A DNA stretch of 64,000 nucleotides from Elusimicrobiota bacterium (lineage in GTDB: Bacteria > Elusimicrobiota > Elusimicrobia > FEN-1173), in assembly GCA_041917295.1 (NCBI GenBank), contig JAYRXX010000006.1, positions 16,876 through 80,875 on the forward strand. Reading direction: 5' to 3'. Shown one piece after another: positions 26,988-64,000 of the stretch. The notes beneath the pieces were generated by a model. That model saw only the letters and a program-made list of their open reading frames with translations, did no database searches and was not told the DNA's origin. A program made the position numbers and the translations under genes. The number at the start of each line of letters is the position of its first letter. Within the stretch, counting starts at the first letter, position 1.

Positions 26988-29900
26988 TTAAGCATTTGAT
27001 GCCAGATGTCTAAGAAAACGCAGGAAGGTTTCCACAACCTCCGTCAAAGTCAGCGCGTTCATTAATGCCGTTCGGAGTTTGGAATCAGGGTTGAGCGCCT
27101 CCACGGCCGTTCGGTTTATGCCCACATTCTCCCCCACCGTGGCCACAATGCCGTTGGCTTTCGCCAAGAAGGGGGCCATTTTATTGTCCAGATCCACGAG
27201 GACTTCCTTCGACCACCCATGATCCTGAATATCCACCGAGAAAACCGCCCCCCCCCGCGCCTCAAACATATCGATCATGGTTTTAAATTTGATTCTTTGA
27301 CTTTCCGAAACCACAAGAGCAACAGAGAACCCGCTCGATGTTTTCCCCTCCCGTTCGATCAAACCTTGAAGGGTTTGAAGTTCCTGTTCCTGGGAATTCC
27401 CCAAAATGTGCACATGCGCGATCGGTTGTCCCGTGGCGGCCATGACCAGCGCTGAAAGTAAATTCAAGGATGACCCGGAAACATTTTCTTGAGCGATGGC
27501 CGTTTGAACAACACCCAAAAATCCCATACGAAATTCTTTGTCCGTTTTTAATCGAGACAGGGTTTTTGTCAGCCACTCGGGCAATGAGTTCCCGTTCCCA
27601 ACAATCTCCTCCGTATGCCCATTGTGAATCCCCGGCATCACCACCTCAAAAGCGCCCTGAACATGGGACAATTGTTTGATCAATTTCCAAGCCGCTTCTT
27701 GCCCCTCCTTTCGCAGATTTTCTTTGTCAAAGGAATGGTGTAAAAGCCCCGCTAACGCCCAAACCGCGCCCCCAGCCAGAACACCAAATTCCGGAATGCC
27801 CAACAACGGAACCGCCCCCAACAAATATGGCGTCACCGAAATTAAAACCCCATAAATCACGCCCATTAACAACGCCTGCACCACCCCCACCTTCACTTTC
27901 GTCACCGGCGCCAAGGATTCAGGAATAAAGTGGGACCCGAAAAACAATATCCCATAAACCAACCCCGCCACCGGAGCCATCAACCATCCAAACGCAGTCC
28001 CCGCGAAAGCGAGGGTCCCCATAAAACCCCAGAAAGCGACCTTAGCACTAAAACTCCACTCGATCAACGCCGCAAACCGCTTGTAAGCCGCCCCAAACCG
28101 CTCGCTTCCCTGTTTAGGATCCACCTTTGACCCCATCCACTCTGCGAATTTAAGTCCCCAAAGGCTTGTTCCGCGCCCGGATTCTGGATCGAGCGGTTTT
28201 TTAATGTTGGCACCCTTTAAGAAAATTTCACGGAGGCTGTCATTAACCTCGTAAAGCGGAGAAAAAAAATCATCGCTTTTTGCGTAAACCCCTTTTAAGG
28301 TTTCAACCGCATTATACTTCAGGCCGGCCACAAATCTAAAACGGTGAAACAATGTTATTTCGAACTCGGTTGGCCGGTGACTACGCATAACAAGCCTCGG
28401 AATATCCCTTTCAACAAGAGTTTTTGTCCTTTCAACAAACAATTTTTTTACACGATCCACATCAGCTGGCGTGATACTGGGGTCACGAACAAGAACAGAT
28501 GGGCCTTGGGGCTTTCCGAGCGGTTTTTCCACGGGACTCGTTTCGTTAGCAACGCTTATTCCCATGTTCGCCAAATCCGTCGTTGGTTCCAGATAAGCTT
28601 TCGCACTACTTTGTGCCACAATAACAGATGTTCCCGGTTTCGCCGAATCTGTCACCGGTTTAGACCCATTTGTATTTCTTATCGTTGCCACAATAACAAG
28701 GGGTTGCTTATTCGCTTCTGTTGCACCGTCACGCTTTGCTCTATATTCGTAACGAAACTCAATGTTATTTACAAACTCCGAAAGATACCCTAATTGGTTC
28801 AATACGGCATCCTTTGGATTAGGCACATATGTTAAACGTTCCTGATGATTGTGTATCATCCACTGGATAACCGTTGCTATCCGCAGTTCATTAGGATCCG
28901 CAAATCCCAAGTCCCTCTGGACAGGAAGCGACTTAAAGCTTTCATAAAAAGACGCCAACCTTTCACCGGCTCGATGAACTTCGATGTCGCCATCAATATC
29001 TTTATAATTGGTTGCAAGTCTATCTATTCTGTAATCCTGTTTATAATAACGAGCCCTGTATTTTTGGCCCTCAGTAAAGACAAGAACTTGTTCAGTGTCA
29101 AAAGATAGGTCTCCGATATGCCTCACATATTGGTATTGCGGAATAGGAATTAAAATAAGCAATCCCACAATAAATGACAGAATGATGGCAATTGAGCCAT
29201 ATAATGCGAGTTTCATTATATTGTTTAATTTGATCCGCGCGTCTGGGAATGCGGGAACAAATTTCACAGATCTAAGATTGATTAGTAACTTTGCGAAAGA
29301 CTTTGAAATCACATTTCCAAAATACCGTTCAAATAAATAATTAAACCTGGAATAGAAAAACCCAAAAATAAATGGAAGCAGGGAAAAAATCAATCCTTGT
29401 TGAGGGAATAAAAAACACAAGTGTACCCAAAGTGATAAAAGGAATGAAATCCGCAACCAGTTAATTGATACTGTTTCAAAAACATCATTAAACACCGGTT
29501 TATTAAAATCTACGCCTAAATAAGAACTCAATCTTTTTTTTACGTCGGCTAATTCTTCTCGCTTATTCATTTCCTGTGGATACAACAAACAGACTCGAAT
29601 TAATTCGGCATAATGTTCCATAGAATGTGTTAACGAATATGCACTAACAAACATTCCGGATTTGTTTTGTTGAGGTGTGTGCAGATATCCTGGTATCAAT
29701 TTTGACAATATTTCGTCAATTATTGTTGGATTATCCTTAATCTCCCATGCTAAATCCTCAATATAATGTAGAGAGTCAGGATTACTATGATGAAGTGCGT
29801 GCCCAATCTCATGGGCAAAAACGTTTCTAAAACGTCCACGCCAGGGAGAAACTCGAACAATCAAATGACCATCGTAACTGAAACTACCCCCGAAACGAAA

Positions 29901-47370: not shown

Positions 47371-47450
47371 GCGTCTTTCGCCCCTTGCGAACCAATGAAG
47401 CACGATTCCCCCCCCCCCACATTAATTTAATTAACTATGTCCCATGCGAT

Positions 47451-47478
47451 TTTACAATTCCGTTACAAACTCTTAAGG
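47451..47478 (+). promoter_or_regulatory. Conserved upstream element of giant B: TTTACA-N5-GTTACA-N4-CTTAAGG
   Basis: Matches the giant A element; ends 36 nt upstream of ATG 47515. Confidence 0.7.
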
Positions 47479-47514
47479 GAATCTTTAGATTGGTTTGATA
47501 AAATTCCCGTCATT

Positions 47515-50500
47515 ATGAAGCTTTTCTTGCGGATGGTACGGCCTGGCCTTGGGGGGATGATATCGTTTTCTCTTCTGCTTACAGGCCCCCTCGCCCCCCT
47601 GGCCCAGGCCCGAACAGAAGAAAACAAAGCCAATTATTGGACAGCAAGGAAAAGCGTTGCCCGACAACGTTCTCTCCCCACCCAGCCAGTGAAGGCGCCC
47701 TTTCCAAATTCCCCGCACTTAAGAGGTTCCGAGCCGGTAAAGGAAACAAGCAAAAATTGGTTTGAAGTGGCCAGTTACACGCCCGTGTTCGGTCCAAGAT
47801 CCTGGAAGCGGGGCAACGTGCTGGTCCCGTTCGTGACGATCATCCAAGACGCCCACGATAATTACGAAGCCCAACTGGCTCTTAGCCGCACCCTGGCCGA
47901 ACTGGCCGACAAGGAAAAAGACGGCCCCCTCCTGGTGTGCGTCGAAGGCGCCTGGGGGCCCCTTTCCACCGAAATTTTCAAACCACTGGATCCAGAATTA
48001 CGCAAACAGAAAGCCGACCAATTACTTAAGCGTCACATTATCACCGGGGAAGAATTTTTATCAATAGTTCATCCAGGTTTAATTCAACTGGTGGGGGTAG
48101 ACGATCCCGATCTTCATAAAAAGAACACCGTGGCGCGGGAACTGGTGGAAACGCATCGATGGTCCACGACCGAACGAATGAAGATCCTCCAAATCAATAT
48201 GGAGCGATTAAAAAAGGCCGTTTACCCCCCCCGTATGCGATCGATTGATGAAATCAGACTGAAATACCAAACGGGGATATTGAACTCCCAAGAGTTTGCT
48301 AAAAAAATAGTCCCTTATGCCTCAAAAGAGTGGTGGCTAAAAAATTTCCCCCTTTTGTATCAACTCTCATCCCTCGACGCAGATGGTCTGGAAAAATCAC
48401 CAACCCGGGCGGAAATTGAAGAATGGGTGACAACCCTTTCAAACACCGATCTACAAAACAAGATTGATTGGTTGCTTCATCAAAAAAAAATAGACCTACC
48501 CGTCTTGGCCAATGAAATGGAAAAAGCACCGGACCAACTTTTACGGATGGACAAACGGTTTCAACTGTTGGTTGAACTTGATCAATGGATTTCCCTGGCT
48601 GACCGTCTTATTTCCCTCAAAATGACTCCGGAGGATTTGAACCAATTCGATCGGATCGAACCCAGTCAATCCATTGAAGACGTCGCAAACAAAATAAACA
48701 TTATCTCCCGAAAAAACAATGTTCGTGTTTTACCCCTCCCTCAAGCCCGTCGGCCCAATGAAGAAACGACGTGGCAAGCGGCCAAATCATTTTATCGGAT
48801 CGCCAAAAAGCGCGACAACGCCATGGCCACCAACACTCTGCGTCAAGCCAGAAAACATGACAAAAGGAAAGTCGTCCTTATTGCGGGAGGATTCCACACT
48901 CCTGGGATCTCGAGACTCTTTCGTCTCCAACAAAATTTCAACCATTCTCTGTGTCCGAAATTTTCATCGAGCGTAACAAAAGCCCCGCGGCCAACGCTCC
49001 GAAAAAAAAGTCTTTTTCAAAAGAGCATCCCTGAAAACAAACGCAAATTCCGTTTATCCCCAACCCTCACCCCGTTTTTCCGATTTATAGTCTTCATGTC
49101 GATCAGCTCCTTGGCCCTCGCGGCGGGCGGTGGGACCGGATCAGATTGGATTGAATATCTCGTTTTGGCATCCACCATCAGCGACCCCTTTTTAAGGCGT
49201 TTAATATCCCGAAAACCCATAGCCACACCTCCGGAAGAAATATTAATAAACAGTGACGCCGCTGTCGGCAAACTCAAAAATGACTTTTTGGCAATATACC
49301 GCTCTCAAAAGATCCCCGAAGCGATTAAGTTGCTGGACGAAGTTTCTTCTTACAGCGATTTAAGAGCCTATTTTTTATTATCTCTGTTAGAAAAAACTGA
49401 ACAACAAGCACTATTGGAATCAATGCCCCCAGCCTTGAAAAGAAGGGTTTTGAACGGTCTCCCGGACTACGAATATCACGCTTACATCAGAGGGATTGAA
49501 AAAACAATTCAGTGTATTTCTTCCCTTAAAGAAATGGATGATTTGTGGAAAAAGATAATCAGTGACGTGCGAGAGGGTAGTCCAAACAATAAAACTGTTT
49601 TAAGCTACTTAAATGCAATTACAGAAGCAAAAGAACGGGTGAGTATTATTCTTAACAAACTCGAATCACAAGTGGCCTCTCTTAAATCCATTGCAAGTGA
49701 CCCCGGTTCAATTCCCAAATTAATCCCTCCACAAGAAACAACCGATTTTATTTTAACCAGAGTAAATCCAGCGCTTAATACGAGAACCATTGCCCATGGG
49801 CATCTTTATTCAATCTTTTCTCATTTGGAGTACGCAGAAAAATGGTTGGGAACCAAATTGAGTCCGTTCGGAGGGATGGCCGCCTTTGGATTGGGTAGTT
49901 CGGGATATATTAACCGAACGCCACCCGCTCCAACGGCGCTGGAGTCTTCCGTTGCATCTTTACACCTTGCCAACGGAGCGAAAGAACGGTTAAGAGACGA
50001 ACTCTACTTTCTGAGGCACCCCGAAGCCACCTACCGGACTGTCCATCAAGACTGGGTGGAAACGATATCCAACGCAACCCGTCAAACAAAAATTAAGGAT
50101 TTAAAGGCACTTTCTCCCCGATCCAGAGATGATGATGAGATGGAAAGCGAGCGCTTAAAAAAAATTGAGTCCTTTTCCCACCGGATGGGAAATGGAGTCG
50201 AGGATCTTTCATTAAAGGCTCAAGCCTTTCTCGAAACGATTGAGGGGCCGCCTTGGAGTTTAACGCAATCCCATTATTTGGCTGAACTGGAGAGAGTCAG
50301 CGGCTATTTTGAGGGACCGGTTCTCGACCGACGAGCAACGGTTGTCCTTCCCAACCCATCCGACATTCAACTTTTTGCTTCGGATTTGGCGGTCCTCTAT
50401 CGTCATCAAGGCAAGGCAAAAAAACTCGTGATATTGGACATTGGTCGCATCCAAACAAGCCATCACGACCAATCCTCGATTGAAAATTTTTTGACCGCCT

Positions 50501-53500
50501 TACTGGCTGAAGCTAAGGAACGCGGGAATGTCATGATCCTTGTGGATATGGAGGGGGTCCAGGGGGAAGGGAATCGAACCTATTTGCACCTGATGGAACG
50601 ATGGAGGGTGGAAAATGATCAATCCCTGGCTCCGGACTTGATAATTTTGTCAAGCGAGCGAACATTCACATTTCACCTACAACAAGATGCACTCAAAAAG
50701 GCGGCTCCCACCTTCACCGTAACGATGAAGGATCCCGCCCGCTTAACCACGCGACGTTTGGACGCTTTTCAGGAACGGATTTCGGCTCAACTTGGGATTG
50801 TATTGGAACACCCGCTTGTTGAAGCCTGCGTCACACGATTATCAAGCTCCGACCGATTTGGAGTTGTAGACAGATCCATTAAGCTTTTAACAGACCTCGC
50901 TTTGAGGGTACAAAATGAGCGCCAGCCTGTGACCTCCCCCTCGCTCGAGGACTTATCAGGATCAGCCGACCTCTTTTCTGAGGAAACGGGTGAACTACCA
51001 CTTGAATTAAGAGCTGTCGCCAGATTGGATGTCATGCCCCCGGATTCCCAGATAACAGTGAAAAAAAAACTCGCCGAGCTCAGCAACCTACGAATAACAG
51101 ACCCAAACAGCGAACGGATAGCCGATATTGAACGTCTGATCGATACGATAATCAGTATTCCTTGGATTGAAATGGCCCCGCCCATTGTTTCCCGCGATGC
51201 CCCGAGGGAAATTCAAGACCAGCAAATAGAAGAACTTTACAACCGATTTGAAGAAAAATTGCGTCAAAGCCACACCGGTCTCGAAGAAAATGTCGTTCAG
51301 GCTCTGAAAGATTTACTTGGCTTAGTTATTCTTAGTGACATCGGCAGGGTCCCCCCCACCACCAATATTCCGACATTGGTGGGCCCTCCCGGGGTGGGCA
51401 AAACCGCGCTCATGCAACTGCTTGGGGAAGTTACAGGCCGCCCAGTGTATCGCATCTCAATGAATACGATACAAGATCCCATGAATCTTAAAGGCAGTTC
51501 TCCCACTTTTCTTCACGCGAAAGAAGGGCGCTTGGTCGCAGAGTTAATTGGGGGAGAACCACGGGTCGGGAATCCCATTTACTTCCTCGATGAGCTGGAC
51601 AAAACACCTCCAGCGGTACAAACAGTTTTTCTTGATGTCGGCCAAAGTTACTTGCGTGACAATTACGCCGGGATGGTCTTTGTTGGGAACAGTCTCTTTG
51701 TTGCCACAGCCAATCATCTCGAAAATGTAATTGCTCCGCTTAGAAACCGCATGGACATTATCCCCATGCCCGGATATACACTGAGGGGAAAAACGAACAT
51801 TGCAACTCGAAACACCCTTCCCCGGGCCTTGGCAAAAAACTTTTTAAGCGATGACCCCGGAAACGGACATCAAGAAGTCGCGTTCAATAATCGGCCGGCC
51901 GTCCTTCAATTCCTAGCTCAAGGCTACGCCCGAGAAGAAGGGATGCGACACATGATCAGACTCATCGACAATATCCTGATCGAAGCCTACGCTCTTTACA
52001 TTAAAACGGGCAGACCCACTCTCATTGATGAAAAATTCGTCCGATCTATTCTAGGGGCGCCGATCGAATTTCTGAGAATACCCAAACAAGACCCAGTCGG
52101 GAGAGCGTATTTTCCCCATCCTTCTGGGAATCTCATTGACACACACGCAATCCCAAAATCCACTATATCGCCTTTGGCGGGACGGTCGGCTTTTCTTGAA
52201 ATGACATTACCCGTTGAACTGTTGCTCAACGAACACGGCCCCGACTGGACAAAGAATATCTGTGCTCTATTTGATGGTAAGAGAGATTCAATCGCTCCGA
52301 TTTCCAATCTTCAAATTGACGTTCCGCGCGTGGTCCAGGAAGATGCGGCGGCACAACTGGCCATGGCGATCGCAACCCTTTCCAAGGCAACGGGGATTCC
52401 TGTAAAACGGGAAATGGCGTTTATCGGGGAAATGGACAACCGAGCCCGCGTTGTTGCCGCAACGAAACTTCGCCAACGAATCTTGGTTGCCTACGACGCC
52501 GGCGCACGTTGGCTGGCCATCCCTCACGGAAATAAGAACGAACTGATGACCAGCCTGTTTCCTGCGATGGAGGCCATCCGAGGTCCTATTTTGGAACCTC
52601 CCGTCAACGATGGCGAAGAATGGACAGTTTACAGGCCTCGGCAGGGGAATATCCCTTTTGTTGCCGATAAGGGGCCTCTTGAATCTGTTTTGGCGTTGGC
52701 GGAAGGAGAAATTTCAATGGCACCCTCGGAATGTATCTATGTATTAGTTCGTACCGTTGAAGACGGTTTTTCCTTGGCGTTTGCCAAACTGGGTCGGCAG
52801 TCTTTCAAGGAGAATCCCCCTTCACCAATTGACATTATCCCACCCCAGGAAAAAACAAAACCAGCGGTAAGTGAACTTACCCGTCCCTTTGAGAAATTTC
52901 CGGAGCTTCCCACCCGGGTTTTGGAGTGGAACATCAACGTTAATGGCCAGTTGGTTGACCTTCGTAATCTTTTTAGAAATGGCCTAACAGAGGAAGCTCT
53001 CTCGCTCATCCAAAATATTACTCAAACAATCGCATCAACGGGTTCACTGGATTCAATCGCACAACTTGAAGCCTGCGCGCGTTTTTCCATTGCCCAGAAC
53101 GACGGTGCCGCCTTTGTCGATTTCTTGTTAGGTCTTGACCCCACGACACGATGCCGTATCATCTCGGTTTTTTCCCCAGAAACCCTGGGGACTCTTGTCC
53201 ACCTCAAAGGGGCGTCAGGTTACCTAACAGAAACCGCGCGATGGGAAGCGAATTTAATAAAAATTCAGTCCACCCTGGCATCGATAAAAAATAATTCCGT
53301 TCAGCGGAAAGACGTTATCGAAATTCAAGATATGTTAAGCGTGCCGGGCGCTTTCCCCCCCTTGTTTAGAGAAGGCGGCAGTTATTATACGATCGTAGGC
53401 CTAAGAGCGGCGATCGATAATTATCTTTATCGGGAAGGTGGAATAGACGATATGAAGGCCCATATGGAGGAATGCTTAGAAATAGGAATTTCTTGCCTCA

Positions 53501-56500
53501 ATAAATACAGAACAGTCCTGTCATACAATGCAAACCCGACAGGCCTTCTTGCTGTAAAAAATGCCATGGACCAAGCCTTGACCGAACTAGCTGTTTTTCG
53601 ACCACTGTTTTTAAGCCCCGATGAACTTGGGGGTCAAGATCCGGAAGGAAGTTGGCAAGTATACATGGCCAACGAACACCTGCGCCAAGAAACACTGAGA
53701 GGATCTTGCCGGTTTATCCCCTTAGAAGATCTTCCAGCCAGCGCAGGAATAGATTCCCCTGAAAGCAACGTCTGGCATGCCCTTTTCGGGGTCCCATTTG
53801 AACGATTTGTTGAAGTATCAAACCGGGATAATCATAAGGTGATGGTATTGACAGGTTGCCCCCCGCTCCTTCGAAACGCTTGGGCTTCCTATTTGAATCG
53901 GAACCTTTGGAAAGTGGGATTGCCTCAGCGAATAATAAAAATTGACGTTTCAAAATTATTGGAGAGCAATTATCGATCAGGAGAATCGACCGAATCAAAG
54001 TGGCCGCGATTGAAAAAAACTCTTGAGGCCGCGCGAGATTCGGGAAATATGGTGGTATGGATCGACTTGGACTTTCTTCCTCCCTCCGCCCCGCCGTTTC
54101 TTATTTCGCGGATTATGCGGTTATTCAATCAAGGTTCTGGGCAAGCGTCTGTCATTTTTACCGGAGAAGAATTCGTGCACCAAAACCTTGTCAATTCCTC
54201 ACCCGTGTACGCCGGGGGGGTGACCCACCTATCAATCGGTGAAGAAAACCGGGAAAACCTTCTTCGATTGGAAATAATTGAGCGGGAAAAAATAACGAAA
54301 GTCCAATACCCCGCTCCCGTCGTAGAGCATCTCTGCGAAAAAGTGCGATCCGGATCCGTTAGTCTCTCTCTTGCGCGAAGAATTCTAGACCGAGCCCACT
54401 CTCCTTCGGGCGAACCCCTAACTCCGGCTCTCATTGATTCAACACAAAAGGGGATCGATCTGGAAAATGATCAAATGCTTCAGTGGGCAACTTTGTGGGA
54501 ACAGTTTGAGTTCATATCTGGAAAGATGCCTAAATCAGCTCGCAAGCGGGCAATGACCCTCTTTGGCCAATTCCGAAAAGCGTCAGGGGACGAAGCGGCG
54601 GCCCTTGAGAATCAAATTAGAATTATTATCGAATTCCCCTGGGAAAAAAGAGCTCCCTCACCTATTCCCCGCCTGCCGCCAAATCCCCAACCTGAGGATT
54701 ATAAAAATCTTGAATCGATCATTGCGGGACAGATCAACACTGTAAGAGAGGAACTTGATCGATCCCATCATGGAATGGATCGGGTTAAAGAGCTGATCAT
54801 CAATTACGTACTGAGGGATTCGCTTGCACGCGCGCACACTGGGAAAGGAGTTGGGAAACCTCTCTTGGTCGTGTCCCACCCAGGACAGGGGAAAACCACC
54901 CTTGCTGAGTCTGTTGCCCGGGCATTAGGGCGACCATTCATATTCATTCCCCTGGGTGCGGTAAAACACACCGAAGAGCTCACAGGGTTCGCTTCCCAGT
55001 ACGTCAATTCTGACGCCGGGTTGCTGATAAAAGGAATGATAAGAGCAGGCGCATTGAACCCGGTCATGCTATTAGACGAAATTGACAAAATGGGTGGGGG
55101 CGAAACGAGTCCAATAGATTCGATTCTTTCCCTCACTGATCCCGAACAAAATGAAAAATTTCGGGACGAATATCCCCAAGTCGATTTTCCAATGGACGAA
55201 CCATTGTATTTTGCAACCGCGAACGATATTGAAAAATTACCTGGACCCGTCAGAGACCGATTTGAGATTATAGTTCTTCCCCCTTACACGCAACAGGAGA
55301 AATCAGCCATCCTGGTTGATAAAGCCCTGCCTGAACTCATGGAAAAATGGGAAACCAACGATCGCGTGACAGTGACGAATGCCTTCCCCATCGCGCAAAT
55401 CATCCTATCGATCGTCCAGGAACACGGGGTGCGACTTGCCAAGGCAAAGATGTCCACGCTGATTTTGAGATCGCTCATAGAATCCCACTTAACGCGCACC
55501 CCCATCGAAATAACGGAAGCTGTCGCTCGAAGACTATTAAGGATATCGGAACCCCCACCATCCGCCGAAATCGTCTCCGCCCGTGTTGGAGAAATTAACG
55601 GCCTTGTCTACAACGAGGCCACCGGGGAGGGCGCGGTACTGGGAATTCATGCCAACTTACACAATTTGGGGGGAGACGAACCCTTCCGATACGTGGGAAT
55701 TGGACGCCTCGGCCCATCAATGAAAGCAAGCCTTGATCGCGCGGTCGCCCTTGCCCAAGTCCGTGCTCAAACGATGATCCCTTCCCTCAACCTCAATGGA
55801 AAAGTTCTGACCGTTTTGGTCACCAAACAAGACGTTCAAAAGGACGGAGACTCAGCCGGTGTGGGCTTTTATTTCGTGGCGCTCTCCGCATTGACGGGAG
55901 TTCCGGTAAGCCAAGACATTGCCCTTACGGGAGCGATCTCCCCATCGGAAGGAGCGATGCAAGTTGGCGCCATCGAGGCAAAAGTATCTGCGGCAATTAA
56001 CGCAGGAGTGAAATACATTTTCATTCCAACCGAAAACAGGGATGTGGTTGACGGAATCGTTCGCAGCAATGGGACAAACATAACGCTCGTTGAAGACCTG
56101 ACCGAAACTAGCTTCCCCTTCACCCTGCGCATTCCCAGACTGTTGTGGAGTCCAGGCCTTGAACTCCGCGCACAGGCGAATCTTGAATCTTCGGTTGAAC
56201 AGGTGGGAATGGCCAAGAATCAGATTTCGTTTGAAAAAGGAGTGGCTGTCATCCGATGTTCCGCTAGTCAATTGAAAGATTTCTCTAAATCGAACAAACA
56301 CTATTCAGAACCACCCACATTGGTCCTCTATCCTGATGCAAATTTAATCGAAGACCGCGTGCTTACCAAAAACAGTCCCAGGGGGACTGACATCAACATG
56401 CGGGATCTTCGAAATGGGTTTATCACGCCCCAGTTCTCCATCCTTCTATTCTTCTTCACTGCCCTGGCCATCGGGCTCCCGATTGGGTTCGAAATCAGCC

Positions 56501-56991
56501 ACTTTATACATTGGGCAAGCACCCACATTTGGTACGTCATCTCGGCCGTCCCTGTTCTAATATTGTCATTTTTCACCCCCATAATCATTTCGCGAATCAT
56601 TAGTCGAAGAATCCCCCCCGCTTCAGGCCCATTAATAGAGGCAAACGGAACCATCCGATTTACGGATATTACAGCGTGGGAAGTAATGGTTGATTTAAAC
56701 AGCCTGGCGAGAAAAAAAGCAGACAATGAGATCCTACGAGTTATTGAAACAGCCATCTCCCAAATTGAGGCCACTCGTTTACTCAACACAAAGGACCCGA
56801 TTTGGAATAAATTATACCCGCATTTAAAACATGGGCCTGCGTCTTATTCCAGGCGCAACCTCATCGCCCTGCTGGAGCAAGCAAACCCCGAACTTAGTCA
56901 AATCGAGATTATTCCACCAAACACAGATCACGTTCAAAGTGTGATCTCACAATTTCTTAACACACAACACGCCAGATTGATTCAAACATAA
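47515..56991 (+). CDS. Giant B: about 3158-aa membrane-anchored protein with a TIKI/TraB-like N-module and two tandem (Clp-like pseudo-AAA + Lon AAA+ + Lon protease) units
   Basis: Signal-like MKLFLRM...LAPLAQA; Walker A GPPGVGKT (51382) and SHPGQGKT (54874); Walker B FLDELDK and LLDEIDK; KDGDSAG (Ser 55852) and GAIEAK (Lys 55981); start moved from 47437 to 47515 on signal-peptide and upstream-element evidence. Confidence 0.9.
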   Translation: MKLFLRMVRPGLGGMISFSLLLTGPLAPLAQARTEENKANYWTARKSVARQRSLPTQPVKAPFPNSPHLRGSEPVKETSKNWFEVASYTPVFGPRSWKRGNVLVPFVTIIQDAHDNYEAQLALSRTLAELADKEKDGPLLVCVEGAWGPLSTEIFKPLDPELRKQKADQLLKRHIITGEEFLSIVHPGLIQLVGVDDPDLHKKNTVARELVETHRWSTTERMKILQINMERLKKAVYPPRMRSIDEIRLKYQTGILNSQEFAKKIVPYASKEWWLKNFPLLYQLSSLDADGLEKSPTRAEIEEWVTTLSNTDLQNKIDWLLHQKKIDLPVLANEMEKAPDQLLRMDKRFQLLVELDQWISLADRLISLKMTPEDLNQFDRIEPSQSIEDVANKINIISRKNNVRVLPLPQARRPNEETTWQAAKSFYRIAKKRDNAMATNTLRQARKHDKRKVVLIAGGFHTPGISRLFRLQQNFNHSLCPKFSSSVTKAPRPTLRKKSLFQKSIPENKRKFRLSPTLTPFFRFIVFMSISSLALAAGGGTGSDWIEYLVLASTISDPFLRRLISRKPIATPPEEILINSDAAVGKLKNDFLAIYRSQKIPEAIKLLDEVSSYSDLRAYFLLSLLEKTEQQALLESMPPALKRRVLNGLPDYEYHAYIRGIEKTIQCISSLKEMDDLWKKIISDVREGSPNNKTVLSYLNAITEAKERVSIILNKLESQVASLKSIASDPGSIPKLIPPQETTDFILTRVNPALNTRTIAHGHLYSIFSHLEYAEKWLGTKLSPFGGMAAFGLGSSGYINRTPPAPTALESSVASLHLANGAKERLRDELYFLRHPEATYRTVHQDWVETISNATRQTKIKDLKALSPRSRDDDEMESERLKKIESFSHRMGNGVEDLSLKAQAFLETIEGPPWSLTQSHYLAELERVSGYFEGPVLDRRATVVLPNPSDIQLFASDLAVLYRHQGKAKKLVILDIGRIQTSHHDQSSIENFLTALLAEAKERGNVMILVDMEGVQGEGNRTYLHLMERWRVENDQSLAPDLIILSSERTFTFHLQQDALKKAAPTFTVTMKDPARLTTRRLDAFQERISAQLGIVLEHPLVEACVTRLSSSDRFGVVDRSIKLLTDLALRVQNERQPVTSPSLEDLSGSADLFSEETGELPLELRAVARLDVMPPDSQITVKKKLAELSNLRITDPNSERIADIERLIDTIISIPWIEMAPPIVSRDAPREIQDQQIEELYNRFEEKLRQSHTGLEENVVQALKDLLGLVILSDIGRVPPTTNIPTLVGPPGVGKTALMQLLGEVTGRPVYRISMNTIQDPMNLKGSSPTFLHAKEGRLVAELIGGEPRVGNPIYFLDELDKTPPAVQTVFLDVGQSYLRDNYAGMVFVGNSLFVATANHLENVIAPLRNRMDIIPMPGYTLRGKTNIATRNTLPRALAKNFLSDDPGNGHQEVAFNNRPAVLQFLAQGYAREEGMRHMIRLIDNILIEAYALYIKTGRPTLIDEKFVRSILGAPIEFLRIPKQDPVGRAYFPHPSGNLIDTHAIPKSTISPLAGRSAFLEMTLPVELLLNEHGPDWTKNICALFDGKRDSIAPISNLQIDVPRVVQEDAAAQLAMAIATLSKATGIPVKREMAFIGEMDNRARVVAATKLRQRILVAYDAGARWLAIPHGNKNELMTSLFPAMEAIRGPILEPPVNDGEEWTVYRPRQGNIPFVADKGPLESVLALAEGEISMAPSECIYVLVRTVEDGFSLAFAKLGRQSFKENPPSPIDIIPPQEKTKPAVSELTRPFEKFPELPTRVLEWNINVNGQLVDLRNLFRNGLTEEALSLIQNITQTIASTGSLDSIAQLEACARFSIAQNDGAAFVDFLLGLDPTTRCRIISVFSPETLGTLVHLKGASGYLTETARWEANLIKIQSTLASIKNNSVQRKDVIEIQDMLSVPGAFPPLFREGGSYYTIVGLRAAIDNYLYREGGIDDMKAHMEECLEIGISCLNKYRTVLSYNANPTGLLAVKNAMDQALTELAVFRPLFLSPDELGGQDPEGSWQVYMANEHLRQETLRGSCRFIPLEDLPASAGIDSPESNVWHALFGVPFERFVEVSNRDNHKVMVLTGCPPLLRNAWASYLNRNLWKVGLPQRIIKIDVSKLLESNYRSGESTESKWPRLKKTLEAARDSGNMVVWIDLDFLPPSAPPFLISRIMRLFNQGSGQASVIFTGEEFVHQNLVNSSPVYAGGVTHLSIGEENRENLLRLEIIEREKITKVQYPAPVVEHLCEKVRSGSVSLSLARRILDRAHSPSGEPLTPALIDSTQKGIDLENDQMLQWATLWEQFEFISGKMPKSARKRAMTLFGQFRKASGDEAAALENQIRIIIEFPWEKRAPSPIPRLPPNPQPEDYKNLESIIAGQINTVREELDRSHHGMDRVKELIINYVLRDSLARAHTGKGVGKPLLVVSHPGQGKTTLAESVARALGRPFIFIPLGAVKHTEELTGFASQYVNSDAGLLIKGMIRAGALNPVMLLDEIDKMGGGETSPIDSILSLTDPEQNEKFRDEYPQVDFPMDEPLYFATANDIEKLPGPVRDRFEIIVLPPYTQQEKSAILVDKALPELMEKWETNDRVTVTNAFPIAQIILSIVQEHGVRLAKAKMSTLILRSLIESHLTRTPIEITEAVARRLLRISEPPPSAEIVSARVGEINGLVYNEATGEGAVLGIHANLHNLGGDEPFRYVGIGRLGPSMKASLDRAVALAQVRAQTMIPSLNLNGKVLTVLVTKQDVQKDGDSAGVGFYFVALSALTGVPVSQDIALTGAISPSEGAMQVGAIEAKVSAAINAGVKYIFIPTENRDVVDGIVRSNGTNITLVEDLTETSFPFTLRIPRLLWSPGLELRAQANLESSVEQVGMAKNQISFEKGVAVIRCSASQLKDFSKSNKHYSEPPTLVLYPDANLIEDRVLTKNSPRGTDINMRDLRNGFITPQFSILLFFFTALAIGLPIGFEISHFIHWASTHIWYVISAVPVLILSFFTPIIISRIISRRIPPASGPLIEANGTIRFTDITAWEVMVDLNSLARKKADNEILRVIETAISQIEATRLLNTKDPIWNKLYPHLKHGPASYSRRNLIALLEQANPELSQIEIIPPNTDHVQSVISQFLNTQHARLIQT

Positions 56992-57012: not shown

Positions 57013-60000
57013 TTAGGCATCCGATCCGATCCGTTTCATGGCTTTCAGGTGATTGTGGATCTCTTCAATCGGCAAGCGCAGGCCCAGGGTGAGCACGTCT
57101 TTGCCCAGTTTTTCCCACGTGGCTTTGTCTTGCAACACCGTCGTGTCCGCCGGGGTCGCGCCGATCATCTCCGGGATCAACGACGTCAACACATTGAACC
57201 GAATCACCCCGCCTTTCACCGCCCCGCGGCGATCCAACAGATCTTTCTCACCGAACACAATGGACCCATTGGCCGCGCCTTTGGCCAACGCCCCGCGAAC
57301 CTTTAGCATATCGTCTACCGACAAACCGTTGTTCACCACCAGAATCTTCAATGTTGATAACTGAGCGTCGTCCAACCGGGACGCCGCAAGAGCCCTCAGT
57401 TTCTGGACCGCATCCTCGTCCACCCGACCAGTGGAGATCAGGTCCGTCGCCGCCACCAGCACCAGCGACGTCTGCGACTGTCGAATCGCTTCATTCATCA
57501 GCGCCTTTTCCATTCGGCCCTGGTAGAGCTGGCCCATCCAGTATTCGCTGTTCGTCAACCGCGCATACCGTTCCCCCATCACCGTCACAATCGAATAGCT
57601 CAACCACGCCCGCCGCGCCATCGCCGGCGTCAGTTCCTCAATTTCTCGCAACAGCCCCAACAAGCTCAGATCCGCCAATTCGTTCGGCATCGAAGAACTG
57701 ATTCGGTATTGAACCACCATCTCAGACGCACCGCCCGTCACTCCGTACCGAGCCAAAGTGGGGATATGTCCCACTTCGTGCACCAACCGGGCCATCACAT
57801 CTCCCGCTTCCCCGTTGCGCACGTGGACCACATACCCCTCTTCGTTCGCCACCACAAACGCGTTCGTGTGCGACTCCGTGTTCCTGTGCCCCTCGGCCGC
57901 CAAAATCCGCTCAAAACTTACAGAATTTTCATGCAACACCACCCTCACCGGCGGCATACCCAAGGGAGACATTTTCAATTTCTTTTCTGATTCCAGCATC
58001 TTTTTCAACATCCCTTCCGCCGCCTCTTGCGCCTGAGCCTGTGTTAACCGCGCCCCAACAGCACCGGTCACTCCCAGAAGGCGATACACCCGTTCCGGCA
58101 ACACACCCGTCTCTTTCTCCAGCTCAGCAATCCGTTTCTCCAGGCTCGCCAACAATTCTCCTTCACGCGTCGGCACACCCATCTGCTCAAGATACCGCGC
58201 CAGCCGCGCCTCCGCCAGAATCTCCATTAACATCGGGTCCATCGCCTGTAGTTCCGGCGCCAACTGATGCATAAACTCCACCGTTCGTTGACGCAGTTGC
58301 CCCTCCCAACTCAACCGGCTTGCGCGCCCACTTCGAACCGCCCGGTTTGCCGCCTCTATCATTTCGTTCATCTGCTTCACGGTCAACCCCAACGTCTTCC
58401 AGTCCGCGTCCTCCGGCAACACAGCCGACAACGCCAACGCGTTGGCCACCGACGTGTTCAAGATCGGGTTCCCTTCCGCTTCCATCCCAAGGAACCCTTC
58501 CATGTCACGTCCTTGTTCAACCGCCTCCCGCACAATTTCCCCCACCGTCCTCGTCGCGATCAGTTTCAACCCATCCCGCGTCACCTGCGCTTCTTGAACT
58601 AACCCGTTGGGCATGACTCGAAACGCCACAACCCTCTTCCCCGACGCGTCCGAAATAAGCTGGAATTCAGGATCCCCCATCGCTCCAGGAACACGCTGTT
58701 GTCTATTAATGAACTGGATAAACGCCGCCATGTCCGCAACCGAACTATTCACTCGGTTTCCATCCAATTCCAAGTTCTCATGAATGTGCAACGTCGGGCC
58801 GGTAACAGCAGGAACCTGAACACCCCCGCTGACCGTCACCTGCCCAGCCACAACCGCAGGCTGACCATTCTCTCCAAACACCGCCACCTGGTTCGATCCC
58901 AATTGGCTCGCGAATCCTGGGTTCGCCGCAATCCACGCCGCGGCCGCCACTGCCCGCGCTGCCGCACGACCGGGCACTCTTGAACCCAATGTCGTTATCC
59001 CCGATTGTTCACCGATTTCCTTATTTAATACCACAGCACGAACCAACTCTTGCCCAACCATTTTGCCTGTTTCCACAAACCATCCTTTCGGCAAACTCCC
59101 CATGTTATAAACCATGTGGGCCACAGTCGTCACGATTGTCCCCACCACAGGCCCCGCCACCACGGAGGAAGCCAAAATCAATCCAACTCCAGCCCCAAAC
59201 AACCCAAACCGCTTGCCGAACTCTTGCGCGTCTTGAACCAATGCCCCCCGATCGAAAACGGCCGACCACCCGCCTCGACCTCGATCCGGGTTCAATTGCC
59301 CGTATCGCCCATGCCATTCCGCGAAAGTATGGGCCAGAGCAAAACCCAATCCCACCAAAACCCCCACCTCCCCCAACCCGGCCAAACTCGACAGGTCACC
59401 TGCAAACACCATTTCCTTTGCTCCCCACAACCACGTTTCCAAGAACATCAGCCCTTCAACGATCGGGCTCACAACCGCAACAACCCCCAAATATCCCAAC
59501 CGTTGCCCAAGGGAACCCTCTTTCCAATCCCGCAAATAAGCTTCAAACACAGACGCGACCGATCTCGCTCCGCTCGCCGTCGCACCCGCGTTTCGCTCGC
59601 TGGCTTCGGGACCCTTGGGTTCATCTGGTGATCTAGGATTTGATACTTCTCCTGTCCCGGAGTTCGGTGGAGCCTCCCCCTTTGCCAGCCTCTGAATCAT
59701 ATTCCAAATAGAATTGGTAGCTCCTGGTCCTTCCTGACGCAACAGATTATCAATCTCTTTAGGATAACCGGCATTATCGGTCAAATCAAACATGCTCCCA
59801 GTCAGCCTATATGGCGGATCCCCAAAGACACCGCCCCTCTTCTGGTAATTAAATGGAACTTGGTCATTATTGCCAAAAGAAACATTGATCCCCGGCCTTT
59901 TTTCTCCCTGGGTCAGGCCTGCGCCGGAGAAACTCCACCCATCACCAGCTCGATCGTGCCATCCCCATCCCTCTTCCGGCCTTTCCGTTCCTCCACTCAA

Positions 60001-63000
60001 CTCCACTTCCCGAACCGGTAGATTAACCCTTTCAATCGTCGGTACGGACAAGACGGCTTCCACTCCTCCATCAGGCTCTTGCCAATTCCTTGATTCAGCT
60101 TCTCCTTGTTGGGCAATTTCTTTCGCGTTTGCTTTTTCTCTTTGCGCTGATAACGCCTCATTTCGCTCCGCGGGTATCGACTTCGCGAAAGCCAACATGG
60201 AATCCAGCTCTCGAACTTTCGCTTGAAGAGTTGCCTTTGTTTCCTTCAATTTATCGATTGCGGCTTTGGCTTCCCTTAATTCGTAAACTGGCTGTCCAGG
60301 CGTATCCAATTGAGCAGTCCCTGATGGCATCGCTCGAATCTGCTCTTCCAATTTGCTCACATAAGTTTCATTTTGATTAATCCCAACATCAATTCGGGAA
60401 ATACGTTCCCCAAGACCTTTGATGCCTACTTGTAATTTGGCCTTATAGGCCCGAAGCTCACTGGGGTTCATTTTTGACACCCGGTCTACCTGATCGAGTT
60501 TAGCCACCGCACTCAACTGGTTAAGGGCATTTCCATATTTTTGATTTAAATTGTCCACACCATTACCGGGACCATCAGCCGATTGAGCGCTGGACAGTGA
60601 AGCCAACTCTTTTTGACCCATAGCTTTTATTCTTGATCCCGCCAAAGATTCAACTTGGGCTCGATGAGCAAAGGAACCCTGAGTTTGAGCCGACTCCCCT
60701 CGCCAAAGCGTTTCGGCCAATGCATTCGCCTCGCTTTGAACATTTCCATCCATCGGAAGGGCATTCAAAATTACGGATCTGACCCCATCCGCACCGAGAA
60801 ATTCCCCATACTCCAACACGCTGGCCCCATAAAATGTCAGGAACTCTTCTAGGCTGGCACTCGCCAATGGCGTCGTTCGTTCATTCATCTCCCGGATCAA
60901 CTCAAACTGAGCTCGCACTACTTCGGGCTGTTGCAAAACCTGGGTGACGTTCATCTGCCCCTTCTCGGTCTCGGTCGAATCGTCATACAAGATCTTTGCC
61001 TCTCTCGTATCGGTCACGCCCCGCGCGGTGGCCGCAAGTTCCATAACCGTTTCCCAACTGACGCCCGTGGACGCACTTACCTCATTGAGGTCAGCGAGAG
61101 TCCAATCGCCCTTCGCCTCCAACTTAGTCCATTCGCTAGCGGCTTTCCGGTCAGAATCCCAACTCTTGCTTTGAACCATCGCACGAGCTTGACCCACAAC
61201 CGCCGTCACCACAGGAGCGACAATCATTCCCGCCACACTCCCAATCGCCATAAAACCCGACACAGCATATGTCGCAATAGCCCCAACAGCGGGTCCGCCA
61301 TAACTCATCATAAATCCTTTGTCCGAAAACACAGCCCCCCATCCTTCCGTCCTCTTTTTCTGAGCCATATTCCTAAAAATGTCCACCGGGGATTTGGCTC
61401 CTGGGGCAAACGCGTTAAAGGCGCCCGCTAAGGCCATAACCGGGATCGCCATTGCGGATCCGCTTAGTAACAACACCCCTCCTAAAACCGTTCCAGCCAT
61501 GCCCGCCCCCTGGAACCACTTGCCGTAAATGCCGTTTGTTATTTCGTCCACCTTGGCGGAAAAAGCTTTGGGATCATTCCCCTGCAAGGAAACAAGCGTT
61601 TGGAGGTCACGCATCTTGGCCCCTCCAACGAACCGCGACGATTGACTACCCAAGTTTTCCGTCAATCGGGTTACCAGATCCCGCGCAGGGGAGAATGAAC
61701 TCGCTTCCAGGACTTGACCCTGGACATTCACACGGTCGGAGGCGACAATGTTTGGTAACTCATCGCTAAGTGGTATCCCTTGATCTGTCACTATTTGGGC
61801 CGCGACGTCTGCTAATACGTGGGCCGCTTGTTGAGCGACGTTTGACAGCCCACCGGTTTTTCCGCTCGAATTAGGGACATTACTGGCGACCTGGGCAACA
61901 GACCTCACGCCTTCGACCAAGGGCGTAACCTGCCGGGCCAATGTTTCGGTCATCGTCATTGGGCCAGAATAGGCCTCCGGATGCGCGTCCAAATCCGCCG
62001 CTTCAGAGAAAGCACCTTCCAACCCTCGATTAACGACTCCCGCGTCCAAACGGTCAGCCATCCGACCCAACATCTCACCCAACCCCATTTGGTCACTGGA
62101 TCGATCTTTTTGAGCAATCCCTTGGCTAATCTGAACGAGCCACGGGCTTGCTGAAATCATCCCTCCAAACAAGGAAGAGGACAGATCCGCCCATCGGTAC
62201 CGGGCTTCCTTTGCAAATCCTTCCAGGGCATGCACGAATCCAGTCGCCCCTTGGGATTTCTGGGCCGAAGAAGGAACGGAGGTCACCGCAGAGGCGAGAT
62301 GGGTAATAACGCGCGCTTCTAAGGCCGTTTGGGCTCGAACGTCCAAATCCATATCCTTAAACCCTGTCAGCAGGTCCGCCATGTTCCCAAGGACGCCCCA
62401 GTTGGCGGCGTTGTCCGCATTAGGACTTGCGTCCCATCGGGGGGTCCAGCCGGTCAGAGCGCCAACCATCTGATGAACCTGGTCCATATTCCCTTCGGCT
62501 CCCAAAGCCGAGAACGCCTCTCGGGCGAACAGGGCCACCTCAGCTCCAAACCCGTTGGCCACCAGGTTTTCCGATTGGCGTCCAATGGATTCAACCATGG
62601 ACTCGCCCTCAAAGAAGTTCACACTCGAATCCCTCATTAATCTCGCCGCGGTCCACAACGTATCCGCCACGGCACCGATATCGCCATCCATCCCGTCGCT
62701 CAGCTGGTTGGCAAGATCAAACAAAGCGTTTTCCACCCATGGGATATTCAACATCGGTGCGTTATTTATGTTCACCTGCGCCATGACCTGATTGACAATG
62801 GCCACATTCACCATTTTCTCGGCATTGTTTCCGGCTCGCGCTTGCAACTGCGATGAGGCACCAGAATATTTTGTCACAGTTACAAATTCCCCTCGCCCAA
62901 TCGCTCCCGACACAAATCGTTCTGCCGCTTCCATGAATCCCAAATTGCTGTCTTTAGTCGTAAACCGATCCGTTCCAGATGCCGCACTTAGGCGGGACTT

Positions 63001-64000
63001 ACCCATCCGATCACCCATTTCTTGAAGCACTTCGGACGCCTCATGGGGCAGAAATGCTGCCATCAACTCAATGGGTTTTTCTTGGAACGCCTCTTCTTTT
63101 ATGAACGCTTCCCATCGGCCCACATGTCCTTTGGCCCACATTCCGCCAAGGAAATGATCGAATTGGTTGATATACTTCACAAAAGACCCAAGTATCGGCA
63201 CATTCTGGATCAGTGGAGCCACAACAGGCCGGAACAACCCAACCATTCCACCAAACAGCCACATTTGAGGATCAGCGGCCGTTTGTTTAATTGTCGCCGC
63301 GAATCCCGCGAAGGCCGATTCAAAGCCTTCCTTAAACGCCGGTATATTGACCAACCCGCCAAACAAGACAATATCCTGGGCATCCTCGCCATACACGGCG
63401 GTATTAATTGCCCCACCTAATCCATAAGCCACCGCGTTGAATTTTGTGACATCCCGCACCGTTCTCTCCATCCCAGAAATTCCCGTGACTAACCCTCGCC
63501 CGATATCTCGACCCAACTGCATCGCCACATACCCAGGCCCTTTCACAGATAGATTTGTCATCAAACGACCAATGTTACCCCCAATCTCACGAAGGCCCGT
63601 CACTTCAAGAACACCAACTCCAACCTGTTTTGCCGCCGTTATAATCCCACTTGTTTTGTAGCTTGTAGAGACGGCCGAAAATTGGGATCGAACCACACCC
63701 ACCCTATCCAATACGGTTTCTTTTGAGAATAACACCTTTCCCCCACCAGCCCCGGGGGCCATCCCCGCAGCCAAGAAAGGCGCGAATATTAATACCACAC
63801 GAACGGCATCCAACATCCCGGGATCGATGGTAACACCCATCTTCGATAACGCCCAGGGAGCCAGCCCTTCAACCTGAGCCCAATCTGGGCCAATTCCTGG
63901 ATTTCCAACAATCAATGCATTAATTATTACCTTAGGCAATGTAAACAGCCCCATTACTTTGCTGGCTCCTTCAAGCCCTGCCTTCGACGTTTGGAAAATG
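57013..64000 (-). CDS. Giant C: 5'-truncated giant membrane protein (more than 2300 aa visible) with Gly-rich hydrophobic segments, coiled coil, CPBP-like bundle and HExxH motif
   Basis: Frame stays open to the window edge (...IFQTSKAGLEGASKV-MGLF); HEVGH at 57766-57780; stop 21 nt from the convergent stop of giant B. Confidence 0.85.
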   Translation of the reverse strand, partial: IFQTSKAGLEGASKVMGLFTLPKVIINALIVGNPGIGPDWAQVEGLAPWALSKMGVTIDPGMLDAVRVVLIFAPFLAAGMAPGAGGGKVLFSKETVLDRVGVVRSQFSAVSTSYKTSGIITAAKQVGVGVLEVTGLREIGGNIGRLMTNLSVKGPGYVAMQLGRDIGRGLVTGISGMERTVRDVTKFNAVAYGLGGAINTAVYGEDAQDIVLFGGLVNIPAFKEGFESAFAGFAATIKQTAADPQMWLFGGMVGLFRPVVAPLIQNVPILGSFVKYINQFDHFLGGMWAKGHVGRWEAFIKEEAFQEKPIELMAAFLPHEASEVLQEMGDRMGKSRLSAASGTDRFTTKDSNLGFMEAAERFVSGAIGRGEFVTVTKYSGASSQLQARAGNNAEKMVNVAIVNQVMAQVNINNAPMLNIPWVENALFDLANQLSDGMDGDIGAVADTLWTAARLMRDSSVNFFEGESMVESIGRQSENLVANGFGAEVALFAREAFSALGAEGNMDQVHQMVGALTGWTPRWDASPNADNAANWGVLGNMADLLTGFKDMDLDVRAQTALEARVITHLASAVTSVPSSAQKSQGATGFVHALEGFAKEARYRWADLSSSLFGGMISASPWLVQISQGIAQKDRSSDQMGLGEMLGRMADRLDAGVVNRGLEGAFSEAADLDAHPEAYSGPMTMTETLARQVTPLVEGVRSVAQVASNVPNSSGKTGGLSNVAQQAAHVLADVAAQIVTDQGIPLSDELPNIVASDRVNVQGQVLEASSFSPARDLVTRLTENLGSQSSRFVGGAKMRDLQTLVSLQGNDPKAFSAKVDEITNGIYGKWFQGAGMAGTVLGGVLLLSGSAMAIPVMALAGAFNAFAPGAKSPVDIFRNMAQKKRTEGWGAVFSDKGFMMSYGGPAVGAIATYAVSGFMAIGSVAGMIVAPVVTAVVGQARAMVQSKSWDSDRKAASEWTKLEAKGDWTLADLNEVSASTGVSWETVMELAATARGVTDTREAKILYDDSTETEKGQMNVTQVLQQPEVVRAQFELIREMNERTTPLASASLEEFLTFYGASVLEYGEFLGADGVRSVILNALPMDGNVQSEANALAETLWRGESAQTQGSFAHRAQVESLAGSRIKAMGQKELASLSSAQSADGPGNGVDNLNQKYGNALNQLSAVAKLDQVDRVSKMNPSELRAYKAKLQVGIKGLGERISRIDVGINQNETYVSKLEEQIRAMPSGTAQLDTPGQPVYELREAKAAIDKLKETKATLQAKVRELDSMLAFAKSIPAERNEALSAQREKANAKEIAQQGEAESRNWQEPDGGVEAVLSVPTIERVNLPVREVELSGGTERPEEGWGWHDRAGDGWSFSGAGLTQGEKRPGINVSFGNNDQVPFNYQKRGGVFGDPPYRLTGSMFDLTDNAGYPKEIDNLLRQEGPGATNSIWNMIQRLAKGEAPPNSGTGEVSNPRSPDEPKGPEASERNAGATASGARSVASVFEAYLRDWKEGSLGQRLGYLGVVAVVSPIVEGLMFLETWLWGAKEMVFAGDLSSLAGLGEVGVLVGLGFALAHTFAEWHGRYGQLNPDRGRGGWSAVFDRGALVQDAQEFGKRFGLFGAGVGLILASSVVAGPVVGTIVTTVAHMVYNMGSLPKGWFVETGKMVGQELVRAVVLNKEIGEQSGITTLGSRVPGRAAARAVAAAAWIAANPGFASQLGSNQVAVFGENGQPAVVAGQVTVSGGVQVPAVTGPTLHIHENLELDGNRVNSSVADMAAFIQFINRQQRVPGAMGDPEFQLISDASGKRVVAFRVMPNGLVQEAQVTRDGLKLIATRTVGEIVREAVEQGRDMEGFLGMEAEGNPILNTSVANALALSAVLPEDADWKTLGLTVKQMNEMIEAANRAVRSGRASRLSWEGQLRQRTVEFMHQLAPELQAMDPMLMEILAEARLARYLEQMGVPTREGELLASLEKRIAELEKETGVLPERVYRLLGVTGAVGARLTQAQAQEAAEGMLKKMLESEKKLKMSPLGMPPVRVVLHENSVSFERILAAEGHRNTESHTNAFVVANEEGYVVHVRNGEAGDVMARLVHEVGHIPTLARYGVTGGASEMVVQYRISSSMPNELADLSLLGLLREIEELTPAMARRAWLSYSIVTVMGERYARLTNSEYWMGQLYQGRMEKALMNEAIRQSQTSLVLVAATDLISTGRVDEDAVQKLRALAASRLDDAQLSTLKILVVNNGLSVDDMLKVRGALAKGAANGSIVFGEKDLLDRRGAVKGGVIRFNVLTSLIPEMIGATPADTTVLQDKATWEKLGKDVLTLGLRLPIEEIHNHLKAMKRIGSDA

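Follow-up and report, generated by a model that had tools for sequence, protein, structure and literature searches.

A putative processing cassette with two protease-type modules at the C-terminal end of a giant membrane protein of Elusimicrobiota

A 64,000-nucleotide stretch of the genome of an uncultured Elusimicrobiota bacterium (GenBank assembly GCA_041917295.1, contig JAYRXX010000006.1; hereafter the window) ends within a giant gene on its minus strand, giant C. On balance, and with only modest confidence, we read giant C as the membrane-embedded C-terminal end of one exported protein of at least 13,965 residues, equipped with a resident processing cassette. Export would carry the long N-terminal part to the envelope or the cell surface, with the C-terminal third remaining threaded in the producer's cytoplasmic membrane. 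Two protease modules near the C-terminus may then be resident enzymes that cleave the giant or other proteins of the envelope, serving maturation, release or turnover, and a Gly/Ala-rich hydrophobic pair ahead of them would be an ordinary resident helical pair. More speculatively, conserved convergent pairing with a tandem-Lon giant (giant B) suggests that the two giants work together.

The part of the gene that lies in the window is the following.

57013..64000, minus strand: C-terminal 2,328 codons and stop of the giant gene (giant C), an open reading frame that is open at the window edge

The frame has its stop codon at 57013-57015 and no further stop up to 63999. The window covers positions 16876-80875 of contig C6 in the source genome (G000); beyond it the frame stays stop-free to the end of the contig (C6:98635), where the assembly cuts it, giving at least 8,248 codons in 24.7 kb of open frame. 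A 5,717-codon frame that runs off the start of contig C42 is most likely the front part of giant C. In a near-complete relative (G122), the giant is one gene of ~40 kb with a few frame breaks, and the C42 frame, the repeats and the C6 frame are collinear with it in the alignment. Because both pieces align in order to this single gene, they most likely belong to one gene, at least 13,965 codons long. The first ~870 residues of the C6 frame are repeats (weak FG-GAP_3 match) that match the last ~1,400 residues of the C42 frame, and both contig ends thus lie within one repeat family. The window therefore holds about the last sixth of a protein of ~14,000 residues: the first-pass annotation of the window had recognized a real frame, but its size of ~2,313 residues is replaced by at least 8,248 on C6 and at least 13,965 with C42. 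The conserved start on C42 combines a basic KK stretch, an 11-residue hydrophobic core and ICA|G, which reads as a Sec-type export signal. After it, ~7,800 residues that include FG-GAP-like repeats contain no hydrophobic segment, and a hydropathy scan places four or five clusters of membrane segments in the last ~6,100 residues.

The cassette occupies the C-terminal end of the window protein (P0001, whose residue numbers are used throughout).

59095..59502, minus strand: divergent CPBP/Rce1-type intramembrane protease module, residues 1500-1635 (motifs, profiles)
59455-59457, 59329-59331, 59116-59118 and 59104-59106, minus strand: invariant residues Glu1515, His1557, His1628 and Asn1632 of this module, respectively
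58453..59022, minus strand: linker with predicted strands, residues 1660-1849, of low model confidence (structure model)
57475..58452, minus strand: zincin-fold (gluzincin-type) domain, residues 1850-2175 (motif, conservation, model)
57766-57780, minus strand: HEVGH, residues 2074-2078 (sequence)
57721-57732, minus strand: GASE, residues 2090-2093, with the conserved Glu2093 at 57721-57723
57016..57474, minus strand: Rossmann-like alpha/beta tail domain and terminal helix ending in GSDA, residues 2176-2328 (model, HMM)

A zincin fold with an HExxH + Glu site is well supported for residues 1850-2175 by conservation and structure prediction. The 8,248 residues contain a single HExxH, where composition would predict 0.03, and it is invariant in every homologue covering that region. 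Across 11 sequences at 31-73% identity, H2074, E2075, H2078 and E2093 are invariant, and the conserved Glu2093 sits 15 residues past the second His of HExxH. LVHEVGH...GASE, singled out beforehand as a peptidase motif with a possible third ligand, thus emerges as a conserved gluzincin-type site on a predicted zincin fold. A 669-residue model (pLDDT 61) had a confident core, and the zincin core modelled alone (pLDDT 71.6, pTM 0.63) showed three strands, the HExxH helix (216-227 in model numbering) and then a helix that starts with the Glu (244-254 in the model). The top Foldseek rows were mostly M32, M3, DUF885, M48, M2, MATCAP and ACE. VIA-align against 48,161 chains ranked 3o0y_A first (Z 8.7, 205 residues, rmsd 4.7) and placed the DUF885 chain 3iuk_B at Z 7.5; zinc hydrolases of the zincin fold made up 39 of the 50 best rows. 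In the larger model, residues up to the conserved Glu aligned with ACE residues up to 411 (Z 4-5), and ESM Atlas gave a weak M26 lead (0.86, few shared features). This domain may bind zinc and act as a peptidase. Searches of Pfam, NCBIfam and PDB sequences matched the zincin to no catalogued peptidase family or solved structure.

The second protease-type module precedes the zincin, and its motifs and profile links support its identification as a divergent CPBP/Rce1-type module, in line with the CPBP-like bundle of the first-pass annotation. Relatives keep Glu, FxxxH and HxxxN on successive hydrophobic helices, with E1515, H1557, H1628 and N1632 invariant (alignment A3), and the corresponding Glu, His, His and Asn positions are catalytic in Rce1 and myxosortase (PMC11980579). 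Giant C has FALAH as motif 2 (H1557) and HMVYN as motif 3 (H1628, N1632). In motif 1 (EExxxR) the first Glu (E1515) is invariant, and giant C has Gly for the second Glu and Leu for the Arg; the relatives P0009 and P0010 retain EExxFR. An insert of ~40 residues after motif 2 is conserved. Pfam on the giant C module alone gave no PF02517 match even at E 10, and two of five relatives had an Rce1-like match at E 0.024, below the gathering threshold. Alignment of the module with nine canonical CPBPs of the phylum in hhalign (P 0.002) put motifs 1 and 2 in register. The module HMM hit exactly the PF02517-positive regions of 4.8-kaa giants in three genomes (E 1e-9 to 1e-8), and canonical CPBPs at E 2e-5 and 7e-5 in a small database. 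These ~4,800-residue giants (L028, L030 and L031 in G043, G037 and G051) belong to another Elusimicrobiota family, and their CPBP domain barely reaches the Pfam threshold. ESM Atlas was uninformative for the module (0.80). Within the source genome, the CPBP-like module was found in giant C alone, and PF02517 had no match anywhere.

The two modules could instead be inactive pseudo-enzyme scaffolds for anchoring, folding or signalling, with the giant acting only as an adhesin or envelope scaffold. Neither module is recognized by a catalogued peptidase family, CPBP motif 1 is incomplete, and a non-catalytic CPBP protein has been described (PMC13692083). The bundle also appears dispensable for the cassette, as lineages G062 and G122 are without it: it had no match in G062, and in the G122 lineage (the G122 giants, P0013, P0014 and P0016) a different module with a second HExxH motif, VMRHELAH, stands in its place beside hydrophobic segments, which may represent a swap of membrane protease type. 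We nevertheless regard loss of activity as unlikely, given that Glu/His/His/Asn and HExxH + Glu are among the few invariant columns at ~30% identity, a pattern typical of active enzymes.

Relatives of giant C are scarce. An exhaustive HMMER search of 1.84 billion representative proteins with the last 1,200 residues returned 10 matches, mostly fragments, and word-indexed searches added five further proteins; two database relatives carry the source name 'Elusimicrobia bacterium'. As a single query, giant C found no relative among the genome or metagenome contigs searched, and a C-terminal profile matched in six of the 401 genomes of the phylum, G000 included. Otherwise different giants share this end. 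A 5,763-residue giant of G168 has no BLAST similarity to giant C, and finishes with the same CPBP-like module, single HExxH and tail domain. With an HMM built on the last 130 residues, the tail domain was detected C-terminally in all relatives and in giants from G168, G228 and G349, and in the source genome in giant C only. The two giant copies of G122 (L016 and L017; G122:C1) are 99.3% identical over their last 554 residues and differ in their bodies. Both carry a single frame break, but not at the same position, and either copy is intact across the break of the other; this points to a recent duplication or to gene conversion, combined with decay or assembly errors. We rejected the possibility that the C-terminal module is a separate gene in G122: with the two copies broken at different positions, the fused form is native. 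The cassette (two protease-like domains and the tail) is the constant part, and the bodies of the giants vary. The tail-domain model matches HAD-like folds generically (Z 6-8); with a generic fold match and Asn at the HAD nucleophile position in several members, HAD-type activity of the tail is unlikely.

The constancy of this end bears on the Gly/Ala-rich hydrophobic segments ahead of it.

61417..61509, minus strand: first Gly/Ala-rich hydrophobic segment, residues 831-861 (hydropathy, conservation)
61207..61299, minus strand: second Gly/Ala-rich hydrophobic segment, residues 901-931, hydrophobic to residue 938 (hydropathy, conservation)

The first-pass annotation had described Gly-rich hydrophobic hairpins and likened them to membrane-inserting segments of large toxins. 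The segments are present and conserved, but each supposed hairpin consists of one hydrophobic stretch, 28-35 residues long, and the stretches combine into a single helical pair. The pair and its connecting loop are conserved, with E 1.8e-44 in G062 and 62% identity in P0017. It is very unlikely, in our judgement, that this pair is a toxin-like device for membrane insertion or translocation, delivering the C-terminal gluzincin as cargo into another cell. The giant does have the export signal that delivery would call for, the pair is strongly conserved and rich in Gly and Ala, the peptidase domain appears real, and for many giants in related phyla an action on other cells is suspected (bioRxiv 10.1101/2023.11.21.568195). 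However, a constant cassette behind a variable body is the opposite of what polymorphic toxins show. The stop codons of giant C (57013) and the convergent giant B (56991) are 21 nt apart, a gap that had been correctly noted at the outset and that is too short for an immunity gene after giant C. Pfam at E ≤0.1 over all 13,965 residues found no toxin, secretion-system or translocation family (no TPS/FHA, PAAR/Rhs, RTX or toxin T-domain family). Moreover, the pair sits among the four or five membrane clusters, one of which is the CPBP-type integral-membrane module; this module, between the pair and the peptidase, must fold in the producer's membrane, and a further domain and a shared end-tag follow the peptidase. 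With a constant cassette that itself includes an integral-membrane enzyme, no immunity gene and no trafficking family detected by Pfam, the cargo reading is unsupported, and an ordinary resident helical pair would better suit a processing cassette held in the producer's own membrane.

Giant B (window 47437-56991, plus strand) is a tandem-Lon giant convergent to giant C, and a tandem-Lon giant is convergent with a cassette-bearing giant at six of the seven loci checked (G000, G062, G122b, two G168 loci and G349). One of the two G168 pairs involves a differently built giant. C-terminal alanine-rich tags are classic signals for AAA+ proteases, and giants of the source genome often end in alanine: 20 of 35 complete frames of at least 1,500 residues do so, compared with 97 of 1,427 shorter frames (Fisher p 3e-14), and in 18 of these 20 the ending is [A/S/N]A, preceded by an amphipathic helix, with giant A of the window (...SNA) among them. 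Another six complete giants have ends that resemble type-IX secretion C-terminal domains (...K-I-x-V-x-R/K). From the pairing, which includes a giant with a different body, and the alanine ends, one could argue that the cassette is mainly a handle, its tail and alanine end-tag being recognized by a membrane-anchored tandem-Lon giant that unfolds, extracts or trims the cassette-bearing giant. This account is compatible with a resident processing cassette, and as the main function we find it quite improbable. All loci lie in one family and are not independent; the G122a copy has no convergent tandem-Lon giant; in G228 the sole Lon match is of ordinary length and on another contig than the giant; and giant B itself, ending in ...LIQT, has no alanine tag (its G168 relatives end in ...LIQTNA). 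Joining the two accounts, the cassette would serve the giant envelope proteins of Elusimicrobia as a portable 'service end' that cuts or presents the chain, with the Lon giant unfolding, extracting or trimming it from the C-terminus as a two-giant system; we offer this as a conjecture to which we attach little probability.

Several results weigh against the reading of giant C as one exported protein with an active, resident processing cassette. Foldseek gave no match at E below 0.02 with either zincin model, and VIA-align Z values of 7-9 are 'middling' by the tool's own scale. The CPBP module is without the second Glu and the Arg of EExxxR and carries the insert described above. Pfam, NCBIfam and PADLOC searches of the window protein and its sub-pieces returned nothing but weak coiled-coil matches, and profile searches of the window protein against PDB sequences returned no match. 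Hydropathy and charge counts do not settle the membrane topology or the side on which the zincin or the tail lies. Since all paired genomes belong to one bacterial family, inherited gene order could explain the pairing with tandem-Lon giants. Finally, the ends of C6 and C42 have no exact overlap, so we infer their join from collinearity.

The remaining features of giant C in the window are as follows.

63742..63822, minus strand: hydrophobic segment, residues 60-86, part of membrane cluster 2 (hydropathy scan)
60124..60558, minus strand: coiled-coil-like region, residues 1148-1292 (two heptad stretches and a Pro/Gly loop)
59923..59970, minus strand: Trp/Gly-rich insert, residues 1344-1359, within a Pro/Gly/charge-rich stretch (sequence)

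The coiled coil of ~100 residues annotated earlier corresponds to a heptad-like region, but not to an unbroken one: heptad-like stretches at residues ~1196-1226 and ~1235-1278 are separated by a Pro/Gly loop, and residues 1148-1292 gave weak SMC/Rad50-type matches only (Pfam, NCBIfam). The small Trp/Gly-rich insert of the same annotation maps to 59923-59970. Directly upstream of the start of giant C, on the minus strand of C42 (L035, G000:C42:17000-28078), lie genes for a TPR protein and a TolC-like outer-membrane protein as well as two AcrB-type RND pumps; in G122, frames as long as these two pumps precede the giant.

We rejected a domain-level relationship of giants A and C through shared CPBP motifs, HExxH and tail (best BLAST E 0.11). 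The E 0.11 similarity, which is non-significant, involves residues ~1494-1560 of giant A (window 26988-32627) and falls in the CPBP-bundle insert; the aligned stretch of giant A is without the catalytic His and Asn, so that giant A may hold, at most, a degenerate CPBP relic, and the two giants are alike only in their last residues (...SNA and ...SDA). A Tiki-like head, as in giants A and B, was likewise rejected for giant C, whose C42 front had no BLAST match to A or B at 1e-4. The source genome has ~40 frames of more than 1,500 residues. The front part of giant C shares 22-28% identity over long stretches with two of them, at C10 122779-155004 (10,742 residues, cut at the contig end) and C62 7415-22861 (5,149 residues). 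Its first ~1,900 residues (L004:15674-17173) look like YD/Rhs-type repeats by eye, and Pfam found no RHS family there at E 0.1. Contigs C79 and C47 each consist of one frame open along its whole length, so this assembly has split further giants.

Giant C resembles the multi-pass, multi-enzyme 'Archaeovorin'-type giants of Omnitrophota, for which self-processing by embedded peptidase domains has been proposed (West-Roberts et al. 2023, bioRxiv 10.1101/2023.11.21.568195). Both exceed 10,000 residues, begin with a signal region, contain numerous membrane segments and have domains that only structure prediction reveals; by the traits that mark the Omnitrophota type, giant C is longer than 7,000 residues and has a signal region, several clusters of membrane segments and embedded enzyme modules. 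It differs in its occurrence in Elusimicrobia, in its C-terminal cassette of CPBP-like, zincin and Rossmann-like domains and in its pairing with a tandem-Lon giant. Pfam detected no SecA-DEAD, C39 or S8 domain over the 13,965 residues; most Omnitrophota giants carry a divergent SecA-DEAD domain. With CPBP/Rce1-like proteases (PF02517; MmRce1; the myxosortase MrtX, PMC11980579), giant C shares Glu, FxxxH and HxxxN on successive helices, but its EExxxR is incomplete, it carries the ~40-residue insert and no Pfam match, and the module, identified from sequence, lies within a 14,000-residue chain, 700 residues ahead of its end. Like giant C, clan MA gluzincins of the DUF885 type and others (3o0y, 3iuk; M32, M3, M1, M4, M9) place strands ahead of the HExxH helix and a Glu on the helix that follows; unlike them, giant C shows no sequence similarity, has its Glu only 15 residues on, and flanks the domain with a helical N-terminal subdomain and a Rossmann-like tail. 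Large translocating or polymorphic toxins share with giant C their size, their export, hydrophobic helical pairs and a C-proximal enzyme domain. Giant C departs from them in its conserved C-terminus, its lack of an immunity gene and of any detected trafficking family, and the integral-membrane enzyme module in the same region.

Giant C is thus a further variant of giant mosaic membrane proteins, and its family is uncatalogued and very rare: searches of billions of proteins bring up only about a dozen relatives. Its zincin would represent an uncatalogued peptidase lineage that has no sequence-detectable relative in any catalogued family or solved structure. A few uncultured phyla are known to encode chains longer than 10,000 residues, and for the question of how they are made, anchored, cut and recycled, giant C gives concrete handles: a conserved cassette with two protease-type active sites of known catalytic residues, a shared end-tag and a genomic partner that is an AAA+ protease giant. 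If the 'service end' conjecture were true, these giants of Elusimicrobia would form a dedicated two-giant system.

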